A program made the position numbers and the translations under genes. A stretch of DNA of 64,000 bases from Escherichia coli (GTDB lineage: Bacteria > Pseudomonadota > Gammaproteobacteria > Enterobacterales > Enterobacteriaceae): NCBI RefSeq assembly GCF_044324875.1, contig NZ_CP172185.1; one strand, written 5' to 3'. Under the pieces are notes generated by a model, which did not search any database, had not been told where the DNA came from, and was given only the letters and a program-made list of their open reading frames with translations. Every line of letters starts with the position of its first letter. The stretch's first letter is position 1. This document shows positions 10,586 through 13,404 of this stretch, piece by piece.

Positions 10586-11230
10586 TCAGCCGGTGCGCAG
10601 ACCGGCTTCGGTGAAGGTGTATTCGTTGATGAGAAGGGCCTCATCCACAGGGGCATCTGAGGTCAGCCTGTTGTGCTCGTTTTCCAGTTGACGGTACAGC
10701 CAGAAGGCCAGGTCGCGCAGGGCTTCGCTGACAGCGGCTTCCGCATCTGTTGTCATAGTCTGACCAGTCGGACTGTTCCGGGTAACAGTGATATCCATGC
10801 TGTACGGATGGCAGTAGCGTCCCCGGCGGTGGATTTCAGCCTGCAGTTGCCAGAAGTTACGCTTCTGCACCGCCTGCAGGGCATCCGCGATACGATGGAG
10901 TTCATGCTCCTGTGGGGCATACTTCCGGATTATCCGGGCTGTCGCCGGCTGCCAGTGCCAGCGTCCTTCAAAACAGGCTCCGTCCCCCTGGCTGCAGCAT
11001 CCGCTGAACCAGATGCACGGCTCTTCCATAAACCTGCCGTTGCTGAGCCGGAAAACGCGCTGGCGGAGGTCAATTCCGAAAATGTCACAGACCGCCCTGA
11101 AGTCCTCATACACGTTTTCATACCAGTTGCTGTCAGCATGATGCTGACGGTACCCGTCGCGGGCTTTTCCCCGTACCGGGCAGGAAAGTTCATCCAGCGT
11201 ATACACTGTGATGGTGATAATGCTGCTCAT
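10586..11230 (-). CDS. Hypothetical Cys/Trp-rich protein (214 aa) sitting between DUF987 and antitoxin genes
   Basis: ORF in operon orientation with RBS aaagggga before ATG; no family recognised; antisense ORF 10673-11410 regarded as shadow. Confidence 0.5.
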   Translation of the reverse strand: MSSIITITVYTLDELSCPVRGKARDGYRQHHADSNWYENVYEDFRAVCDIFGIDLRQRVFRLSNGRFMEEPCIWFSGCCSQGDGACFEGRWHWQPATARIIRKYAPQEHELHRIADALQAVQKRNFWQLQAEIHRRGRYCHPYSMDITVTRNSPTGQTMTTDAEAAVSEALRDLAFWLYRQLENEHNRLTSDAPVDEALLINEYTFTEAGLRTG

Positions 11231-11248
11231 CAGAATCCCCTTTCTGAT

Positions 11249-11470
11249 TCAGTTCAGGGTGACGCTCATCAGCCGGACATACGGGCCAAAACTGTCCTTA
11301 CGGCGTTCAGCAAACACGGCCAGCACACCGGGAATATCCTGTACTTCACGACCGGTATACGTCTCAGCACTGCCGTGCCAGCGGTACTTACCGGTGCAGA
11401 ACGGAAATAGACGGGATGCAGGATGCTGTTGGTGAATACGCATGGCTTCACCACGGGTGATAATTTTCAT
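11249..11470 (-). CDS. DUF987 protein (YeeT/YpjJ-like)
   Basis: 73 aa, position directly downstream of radC-like gene as in CP4-type islands. Confidence 0.6.
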   Translation of the reverse strand: MKIITRGEAMRIHQQHPASRLFPFCTGKYRWHGSAETYTGREVQDIPGVLAVFAERRKDSFGPYVRLMSVTLN

Positions 11471-11532: not shown

Positions 11533-12009
11533 TTAAAGCAGACCATGTTCGGCAAAGGAGAAAACCTGGCTGCCACCGACTATCAGATGGTCCGGCACCC
11601 GGATATCCACCAGGCCCAGTGCCTGTACCAGACGTTCCGTGATAAGGCGGTCTGCCTTGCTGGGTGTGACTTCACCGGACGGGTGATTGTGCGCCAGCAC
11701 CACGGCAGCGGCATTGTGGTACAGGGCGCGTTTAATCACTTCCCGGGGATGGACTTCCGTGCGGTTGATGGTGCCGGTGAAGAGGGTTTCACCGGCAATC
11801 AGCTGATTCTGGTTGTTCAGATACAGCACCCGGAATTCTTCACGCTCCAGTCCCGCCATGTTCAGAATCAGCCATTCCCGTGCCGCATGCGTGGAGGTGA
11901 AGGCCACGCCGGGTTCATGAAGATGGCGGTCCAGGGCTTTCAGGGCCCGCTGAATGAGGCTGCGCTCTCTGGTTGTCATTTCTCCGGGCAGAAAGGAAAT
12001 CTGTTGCAT
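11533..12009 (-). CDS. RadC-like JAB/JAMM-domain protein (YeeS/YfjY/YkfG-like)
   Basis: 158 aa with JAMM motif HNHPSG and upstream E; synteny with antirestriction gene. Confidence 0.8.
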   Translation of the reverse strand: MQQISFLPGEMTTRERSLIQRALKALDRHLHEPGVAFTSTHAAREWLILNMAGLEREEFRVLYLNNQNQLIAGETLFTGTINRTEVHPREVIKRALYHNAAAVVLAHNHPSGEVTPSKADRLITERLVQALGLVDIRVPDHLIVGGSQVFSFAEHGLL

Positions 12010-12024: not shown

Positions 12025-12504
12025 TCAGTCAATGATGCGCATAATGGCGCTGCATTCCGGATGCTGCAGGGCGTAATCCCGCAGACGGTAATAATGAACC
12101 GTCATGGCATAACACTCCGTACGGCAGGCGTGATGACTGTACGTCATCAGACAGGCAGCAATGCCGGCGGCTTCCGGGCTCATTTCAGCGCGGTTACCGT
12201 TCATGGCATTGAACAGTACCCATGTTTCGTCATCATCATCATCCGGTTCGGGGGCCATAAATGCCCCGCCGTTGTTCAGGGTGTACAGATTCCAGATACC
12301 ACCGCAGTAGTCTTCGCACAGACGGTCCATCCAGCCGAAGACACTGGGCTCCAGGGTCACCCACTGTGGAATGAGGCCAAAATGCTGCGGCCAGAAGCTG
12401 ATGCGCTGTTCATCAGGGACGAGGCTGGCAACCAACTGAGGCGGATTATTCTCTGGTGTTGTAGCTGAATAAATTGTGGGGGTATTCTGAGAAACGGTTT
12501 TCAT
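12025..12504 (-). CDS. Antirestriction protein (ArdB/KlcA-like, YfjX/YeeR-position)
   Basis: 159 aa, acidic stretch DDDDDE; resembles remembered YfjX-family proteins. Confidence 0.6.
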   Translation of the reverse strand: MKTVSQNTPTIYSATTPENNPPQLVASLVPDEQRISFWPQHFGLIPQWVTLEPSVFGWMDRLCEDYCGGIWNLYTLNNGGAFMAPEPDDDDDETWVLFNAMNGNRAEMSPEAAGIAACLMTYSHHACRTECYAMTVHYYRLRDYALQHPECSAIMRIID

Positions 12505-12585: not shown

Positions 12586-13404
12586 TCAGCGCATGCTCTC
12601 CAGCAGCGTTTCTGCCATCACCCACAATGCGCGGTTGAGTTTTATATCGGTATCAATGCTGTGAATGGCCCGGGTATGGATACGTTTTCCTTTTGCACTG
12701 CGACCGGAAATCCCGCCTTTCAGCATATTCTCCTGGATGGTCTGATAAGCACTCCACAGGTCCTTACCGTAATCCTCCCGGCGTCGTGGTGTCAGAATGT
12801 CGGCGGTGGTGACGGGCTGATGTTCGTCACCATAACGGTAAGTCAGTGCCGCCTGTGCCAGCGCCTGGCGTGCCGGTGGCGGCAGGACCAGCGACTGCAT
12901 GGCATCACGCTTCTCCTCTATCCGGTCAAACACGCCCACCACCTCGTAAGCCCCTTCAATGACTCTGTCCACCACATTTCCCCGGTGCGGAACACGCACT
13001 TCCCCCCGAGACTGACCGCAGACGCATCCGTTCTGGCAGACGAACCTGAAGTAACCCGGCAGCATCTGGTAGCTGGAGGTACCGTCATGAGAGTTGAGCA
13101 GAATAATTTCAGGGACATGTTGTCCGTTTATCTCCCCGTCACGGCGCAGACGCAGCATGTGTTTGGTATACCCCCGGCGACCCGGGTCACGTACGCGGGT
13201 CTGGCAGGCGAAGAATGGCTGAAAGCCTTCCCGCTGCAGGCTTTCCAGCACGGTGATGGTGGGGATGTATGTATAGTTCCGGCTCCGGGAGGTGTGTTTA
13301 TCTTCCCCGAAAATCCCGGGCACATGGTGCATCAGCTCTTCACGGGTCAGCGGACGGTCACGGCGTATCTGGTTCGCATAACCAAAACGACTGGCTAATC
13401 GCAT
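12586..13404 (-). CDS. DUF932-family protein (YfjQ/YafZ-like)
   Basis: 272 aa; family assignment from memory of CP4-57 gene order and size. Confidence 0.55.
   Translation of the reverse strand: MRLASRFGYANQIRRDRPLTREELMHHVPGIFGEDKHTSRSRNYTYIPTITVLESLQREGFQPFFACQTRVRDPGRRGYTKHMLRLRRDGEINGQHVPEIILLNSHDGTSSYQMLPGYFRFVCQNGCVCGQSRGEVRVPHRGNVVDRVIEGAYEVVGVFDRIEEKRDAMQSLVLPPPARQALAQAALTYRYGDEHQPVTTADILTPRRREDYGKDLWSAYQTIQENMLKGGISGRSAKGKRIHTRAIHSIDTDIKLNRALWVMAETLLESMR

Follow-up and report, generated by a model that had tools for sequence, protein, structure and literature searches.

Gene content of the locus

The window, by which we mean the whole 64-kb stretch of Escherichia coli DNA analysed here, carries a run of genes that lies entirely on the minus strand, from a DUF932 gene to a DUF4942 gene, and the island ends at ynjB. 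The gene of interest, here called X, is located between a DUF987 gene and the antitoxin gene cbeA. Listed from the upstream to the downstream end of the run, the features are as follows.

12586-13404, minus strand: DUF932 gene, the first of the conserved module considered (PF06067, E=5.3e-52)
12025-12504, minus strand: antirestriction gene of the ArdB/KlcA type (PF03230, E=2.4e-37)
11533-12009, minus strand: RadC-like JAB-domain gene (PF04002, E=1.2e-44)
11249-11470, minus strand: DUF987 gene, YeeT-like, 18 nt upstream of X (PF06174, E=9.7e-40)
11236-11242, minus strand: Shine-Dalgarno-like AAGGGGA, 5 nt before the ATG of X, read directly from the sequence
10586-11230, minus strand: gene X, 645 nt with ATG start and TGA stop, encoding a 214-aa protein of the DUF8835 / phrog_5162 family
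10168-10536, minus strand: cbeA, YeeU-family type IV antitoxin gene, 49 nt downstream of X (PF06154, E=8.8e-52)
9704-10078, minus strand: cbtA toxin gene (PF06755, E=4.6e-62)
9282-9707, minus strand: 141-aa ORF with the N-terminal DUF5983 domain only, residues 5-58 (PF25638, E=2.5e-27)
8412-9197, minus strand: DUF4942 gene, the last gene of the island, with ynjB adjoining (PF13708, E=9.8e-45)

An earlier, sequence-only reading of this DNA described a well-formed ORF with its own ribosome binding site between the DUF987 and antitoxin genes, and the ORF, the Shine-Dalgarno-like site and the neighbors are all present. No second copy of X was found in the 64-kb window. The start of cbeA is taken as the GTG at 10536, following junction alignments and the RefSeq annotation of a locus whose copy of X is 99.8% identical; the 162-aa ORF at 10168-10656 represents cbeA read from further upstream in the same frame, and shares 71 nt with the 3´ end of X. 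Other E. coli alleles differ by a 34-nt indel, their spacer between X and cbeA measuring 15 nt instead of the 49 nt of the window. On the opposite strand, a 245-aa ORF (10673-11410, plus strand) spans X and the DUF987 gene. It is most likely a shadow ORF, given that homology, selection and structure prediction all favor the minus-strand frame.

A crude consensus scan detected no promoter-like or terminator-like site on the minus strand between 12504 and 10078. The lack of such patterns between the genes, together with the short intergenic gaps, makes it plausible that X is co-transcribed with its neighbors as part of one transcription unit.

Several other features of the island were documented. 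The 141-aa ORF at 9282-9707 overlaps the cbtA stop codon. It looks like a deletion-derived fusion or remnant, because only the N-terminal DUF5983 domain is present and because the annotation of the locus with the 99.8% identical X gives a truncated DUF5983 pseudogene and, after it, a DUF957 gene. An ALIL pseudoknot, the IS3-family frameshift element, was detected by Rfam at 27070-27186 of the window (plus strand; RF01497, 116 bits), which indicates a copy of an IS inside the island. The region surrounding the 99.8% identical copy of X (NZ_CP033635.1, 2598000-2647000) is, beyond the module, a mosaic island rich in IS remnants, and encodes aerobactin (iucABCD-iutA), sitABCD, sodC, a YadA-like adhesin and a group II intron.

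Gene X encodes a probable DUF8835 protein

A protein family search, which the sequence-only reading had proposed, assigned X to the phrog_5162 family, and the RefSeq names of its orthologues indicate that this is DUF8835. The match to phrog_5162 (PHROGs v4, unknown function) has E=7.5e-31 and aligns residues 3-212 with positions 3-197 of the 201-position profile, and RefSeq uses the product name DUF8835 for orthologues of X that are 91-94% identical in DNA and found at the same position. The name appears as 'DUF8835 domain-containing pootine' on records H6, H7, H11, H18 and H20, a RefSeq typo that has spread through recent records. Copies of Pfam and NCBIfam without a DUF8835 model gave no match for X (none at E≤0.01 in Pfam), and no family of PADLOC-DB 2.0 matched at E≤1. 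X has no match to PF06154 (CbeA/YeeU), the family of the adjoining gene at 10168-10536, or to PF03230 (ArdB/KlcA), the antirestriction homologue of the module being the gene at 12025-12504.

The family is large. A phmmer search of 1.84 billion cluster representatives found 2739 clusters (50% identity) at E≤1e-3, nearly all of them single-domain proteins of 200-220 aa. Nearly invariant positions include E14, L15, G52, L111, I114, L118, H141, W177, Y179, L182, F206 and G210, and residues 75-89 form a nearly invariant loop motif, FSGFxSQGDGAxFEG. AlphaFold2, given an alignment of 112 sequences, predicted one alpha/beta domain with high confidence (pLDDT 96.3, pTM 0.89). Sequence searches of the PDB with the X protein and with the family profile gave no relative; the top match, to a herpesvirus glycoprotein at E=0.34, is noise. 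Likewise, Foldseek found no match between the model and solved structures (best E 0.24), and a search of BFVD recovered only uncharacterized phage proteins. We found no functional study of DUF8835, DUF987 or the yeeS/yeeT/yeeU islands in the literature.

One product name given to X in databases, that of a RelB/Phd-type antitoxin, can be ruled out, as X has no antitoxin match in Pfam and is a single domain of 214 aa. A search of 112 relatives of X against Pfam at E≤0.1 gave 42 weak matches only, and no antitoxin family is among the 25 most frequent of these 42. RelB/Phd-type antitoxins are about 80-90 aa, whereas the predicted fold of X is a different, larger alpha/beta domain; nothing connects the two other than the database name that X has inherited and the toxin-antitoxin (TA) pair that adjoins it. 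A paper that uses the antitoxin label means relB, a protein unrelated to X. No cognate toxin of the Doc, RelE or YoeB type was found beside X, the neighbors being DUF987 and CbeA/CbtA, and in other taxa the gene after X encodes MbcA, DUF6088 or a methyltransferase/helicase. The "antitoxin" name is thus misleading, with no profile to back it.

Distribution in E. coli and comparison with K-12

The sequence-only reading gave a canonical order in which the antitoxin gene directly follows the DUF987 gene, and this order was confirmed in all three CP4 islands of MG1655. CP4-44 (yeeS-yeeT-cbeA-cbtA), CP4-57 (lfgA-lfgB-ypjJ-yfjZ-ypjF) and CP4-6 (yafX-ykfG-ykfH-yafW-ykfI) have the same families in the same order as those that flank X in the window but are without X, the gap between the DUF987 and antitoxin genes being 73 nt (yeeT-cbeA), 37 nt (ypjJ-yfjZ) and 18 nt (ykfH-yafW), respectively. 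The antirestriction, RadC, DUF987, CbeA and CbtA families are common to the window and the K-12 modules. Two prospects that would have spoken against the earlier interpretation, an X homologue at this position in the CP4 islands and disruption of the ORF in related strains, were not borne out: the three K-12 islands are without X, and the ORF is intact in relatives. In CP4-57 (locus L010, 1920-2869), the current annotation designates yfjX as lfgA (antirestriction) and yfjY as lfgB ('CP4-57 prophage protease'). A 2024 study (PMC10846083) reports cleavage of the antitoxin MqsA by LfgB, which links the RadC-like neighbor in such modules to antitoxin turnover.

Outside K-12, X is common. Megablast with the 645-nt gene as the query gave 2950 places, spread over 2045 of the 5426 complete E. 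coli genomes searched (about 38%). In 1942 of these 2045, at least 80% of the query is covered. Identity is mostly 90-95%, and the gene occurs eight times in one genome. By comparison, cbeA was found at 13145 places and DUF987 at 12910, such that X is present in about 22% of E. coli DUF987-cbeA modules. Conservation of the insertion among strains had been raised as a check, and X recurs at the same position in these 2045 genomes, lying between DUF987 and cbeA in every annotated E. coli locus that we inspected (L001-L003, L016-L018 and L100-L102). One X-bearing module among those inspected occupies the CP4-44 site, adjoining yeeA and sbmC.

To call X an "extra" gene is therefore misleading, and it does not look like special cargo of this island, because it recurs at the same position in so many genomes and because the link to DUF932 and RadC extends to Alphaproteobacteria. 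X is an ordinary, widespread and already catalogued gene. It had appeared surprising because the reference was K-12, which does not represent such islands well, X being present in roughly one in five DUF987-cbeA modules.

Selection, allelic variation and composition

The reading frame of X is intact at 645 nt in the E. coli, Klebsiella and Salmonella copies examined, and is kept at exactly this length despite 40% protein divergence. Comparisons between genera give pairwise dN/dS values of 0.12-0.23, and those among close E. coli alleles give 0.29-0.44, which indicates that X is under purifying selection. The full-length 214-aa form dominates the protein database, in clusters of 500-1300 member sequences, with occasional frameshifted or truncated variants (P0041 and P0043, for example). 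At several conserved positions, the allele in the window has a residue other than that of the family consensus (W26G, F78C, Y91W and Y93W). Together with the higher dN/dS among E. coli alleles than between genera, these departures hint that selection in the E. coli lineage is relaxed or diversifying.

The sequence-only reading had also called the protein Cys/Trp-rich. The window copy is indeed enriched, with seven Cys (3.3%) and six Trp (2.8%) against family means of 1.8% and 2.2%. However, none of the seven Cys is conserved in the family, which rules out a conserved Cys/Trp metal-binding site, and W177 is the only nearly invariant Trp. The richness is therefore a local trait.

Homologues on plasmids and in phages

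Tblastn located homologues of X in 108 plasmid records, mostly from Alphaproteobacteria and chiefly Rhodobacterales, 41 of which are typed as conjugative. On chromosomal contigs, a scan of one genome per species gave 542 relatives, and the best 80 of the 542 are almost all alphaproteobacterial, at 55-59% identity. On the alphaproteobacterial plasmids, the gene order is SSB .. DUF932 - RadC (- RadC) - DUF6878 - DUF6915 - two small genes - X, which is followed by a variable slot, a strawberry-notch or methyltransferase/helicase gene, and toprim. Of five annotated plasmids, two have MbcA/RES in the variable slot, one has DUF6088/AbiEii, and two have no TA pair there. Over the 50 kb inspected around this plasmid block, neither a relaxase nor an oriT was detected.

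When the ORFs surrounding 87 X loci were clustered, X was found to lead directly into a gene for a methyltransferase/helicase of about 1450 aa at about 49 loci, and mixed inserts follow it at the rest. Because the inserts are mixed and X so often joins the helicase gene directly, the TA pairs downstream of X appear to be cargo of a junction prone to insertions rather than partners of X.

Upstream, a conserved 138-aa protein is encoded at 68 of the 87 loci by a gene that overlaps the start of X by 8 nt, an overlap that suggests translational coupling between the two. This protein (6589-7008 in locus L004, and 67 other alphaproteobacterial loci among L019-L098) has the sequence MADYFTHFSCLLDVG...GLWGF.YAN.CS.PR.D.FGGGAH and has no match in Pfam. 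It was also considered as the equivalent of DUF987 or CbeA, a possibility ruled out with an HMM of 58 sequences, whose best hit in the window and the enterobacterial loci has E 2.8.

In addition, tblastn found X homologues of 25-36% identity in 45 records of lytic or jumbo phages that infect Caulobacter, Brevundimonas, Acinetobacter, Pseudomonas, Erythrobacter and Escherichia. They sit in arrays of small hypothetical genes, and the homologue in Colossusvirus is inside the 18.4-kb terminal repeat. The homologue in an Acinetobacter phage is labeled 'RNA polymerase binding protein', a name we dismissed given the implausible names of neighboring genes, such as 60-aa 'DNA polymerase' genes.

When the modules of E. 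coli and Alphaproteobacteria are compared, X is 50-58% identical over its full length, compared to 34-41% for RadC and 33% for the antirestriction protein, with similarity undetectable for DUF932. X is the best-conserved protein common to the two. The enterobacterial types of X are 57-71% identical to one another and 50-63% identical to the alphaproteobacterial proteins, and are thus nearly as divergent mutually as from the latter. Both observations suggest that X is an old backbone gene of the DUF932-RadC module that was lost by K-12-type islands, rather than a new insertion.

Discussion

We give about an even chance to what we see as the best explanation overall, namely that X is an optional, ancestral backbone gene that acts as an establishment factor and is not a dedicated partner of CbtA/CbeA. 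In this model, X is intact and looks expressed, its product is a single alpha/beta domain of the DUF8835 family, and the gene is an optional, probably ancestral member of a backbone with the order DUF932 - antirestriction - RadC - DUF987 - (X) - CbeA - CbtA. Enterobacterial integrative islands carry this module, with the K-12 CP4 islands representing versions that do not have the gene. We infer that X would be made upon entry of element DNA into a new cell to help the mobile element establish, and that it may neutralize a host defense or engage a conserved host component. The TA genes nearby would be variable cargo, often landing just downstream of X.

An establishment or anti-defense role is our best guess by analogy. 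It is favored by the company that X keeps (antirestriction, SSB, RadC and methyltransferase/helicase genes), by its being shared among plasmids, integrative elements and phages, and by its position within a phage terminal repeat. The leading regions of conjugative elements encode antirestriction proteins, SSB, methyltransferases, TA systems and uncharacterized families, about 10% of which are common to phages (PMC11541004). X resembles members of such leading-region and early phage gene sets (ArdA/ArdB/KlcA, PsiB and SSB; Samuel et al., 2024, PMC11541004) in being a small single-domain protein, in having antirestriction, SSB, RadC and methyltransferase/helicase neighbors, and in being common to plasmids, integrative elements and lytic phages. 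In contrast, X has no sequence or fold similarity to any characterized anti-defense protein. The high conservation of X across classes of hosts suggests that its target may be a conserved host component.

The main alternative is that X is an enzyme or a nucleic acid-handling factor for the DNA metabolism of the element itself, such as the processing, repair or recombination of incoming single-stranded DNA, and does not act against host defenses. We consider this unlikely, although it fits the steady linkage to RadC, SSB and DUF932, alongside which X would work, and to toprim and helicase/methyltransferase genes, as well as the very high conservation across bacterial classes. Sequence conservation also points to a putative active or binding site made up of the nearly invariant polar residues (E14, S80, Q81, D83, E88, D108, H112, Y139, H141, R172 and Y179) and the FSGFxSQGDGAxFEG loop. 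On the other hand, S80 is Cys or Asn in some members of the family, and X is not similar to any known nuclease, ligase, polymerase or DNA-binding fold.

We ranked lower, as rather improbable, a role as a third, accessory part of the type IV CbtA/CbeA system, in which X would be a regulator, adaptor, sensor or second neutralizer of the toxin and would be co-expressed from the operon of the pair. The sequence-only reading had raised a similar idea, that X could be an alternative partner of the TA module, and several observations agree with it. A cbeA gene adjoins X in every enterobacterial locus examined, and X is even found between the antitoxin and toxin genes, in the order DUF987 - CbeA - X - CbtA, in Klebsiella michiganensis (L013-L015, 6610-7996) and in Salmonella enterica subsp. 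diarizonae (L074, 5675-7065). Natural X-CbeA fusions of 342-343 aa, which arose by a single TGA>TTA change across the 15-nt in-frame spacer (L100-L102, 3001-4032; P0008 and P0014), occur in several independent assemblies, at least three in number and one of them a complete chromosome, and on some alphaproteobacterial plasmids a TA pair comes directly after X. Other observations argue against the idea. X is missing from about 78% of E. coli DUF987-cbeA modules, among them the K-12 systems that have been studied by experiment, and these work in its absence, and co-occurrence of X with cbtA/cbeA is not obligate in the other direction, most non-enterobacterial X genes being without CbtA/CbeA. Lytic phages have X with no such TA pair nearby, and most alphaproteobacterial loci have no TA pair after X or, where one is present, have a pair of unrelated type (MbcA/RES or AbiEi/AbiEii). 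The AlphaFold2 model of the fusion, a weak test, has a pTM of 0.63, which is about the share of the X domain, and shows no confident interface; its linker is disordered, and CbeA, for which the alignment was shallow, has a pLDDT of 44-75. The fusion also keeps the internal cbeA ribosome binding site and GTG start, and thus need not mean a functional link. The adjoining cbeA and the CbeA-X-CbtA order are more easily explained by a functional tie than by chance, and the fusions leave such a role conceivable, yet the case for X as a TA partner is circumstantial and the claim is not supported.

Least probable, and by a wide stretch, is the view of X as a mere passenger, an ORF in decay or without function that hitch-hikes in a mobile island. 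The gene is dispensable in most modules, dN/dS among close E. coli alleles is above the cross-genus values, the window allele has substitutions at conserved positions, and broken variants do occur at times. Against this, the full-length form dominates in large clusters, the frame is preserved across deep protein divergence with low dN/dS, identity between Gamma- and Alphaproteobacteria remains at 50-58%, and the predicted fold is confident.

A third gene within or next to the TA operon is also a feature of tripartite toxin-antitoxin-chaperone (TAC) systems and of other TA operons with three genes. The position of X within CbeA - X - CbtA in Klebsiella and Salmonella is reminiscent of this arrangement. 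However, X is not SecB-like by fold search, is dispensable at most CbtA/CbeA loci, and is common without a TA pair.

As a discovery in its own right X matters little, being annotated in thousands of genomes and having a DUF number. Three points deserve to be kept: a database name that misleads, the natural fusions together with the CbeA - X - CbtA order, and the predicted fold without solved relatives. X is also a reasonable candidate for anti-defense or establishment screens, as it is conserved, has a confidently predicted fold with no solved match, and is common to phages, plasmids and islands. We regard as possible, though tentative, a combined picture in which X has a fold without a solved relative, acts on a conserved host component or defense minutes after DNA entry, and in Enterobacteriaceae has in addition been wired into the CbtA/CbeA operon. 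If X has indeed been wired in as a third component, the CbtA/CbeA modules with and without X would be functionally different.
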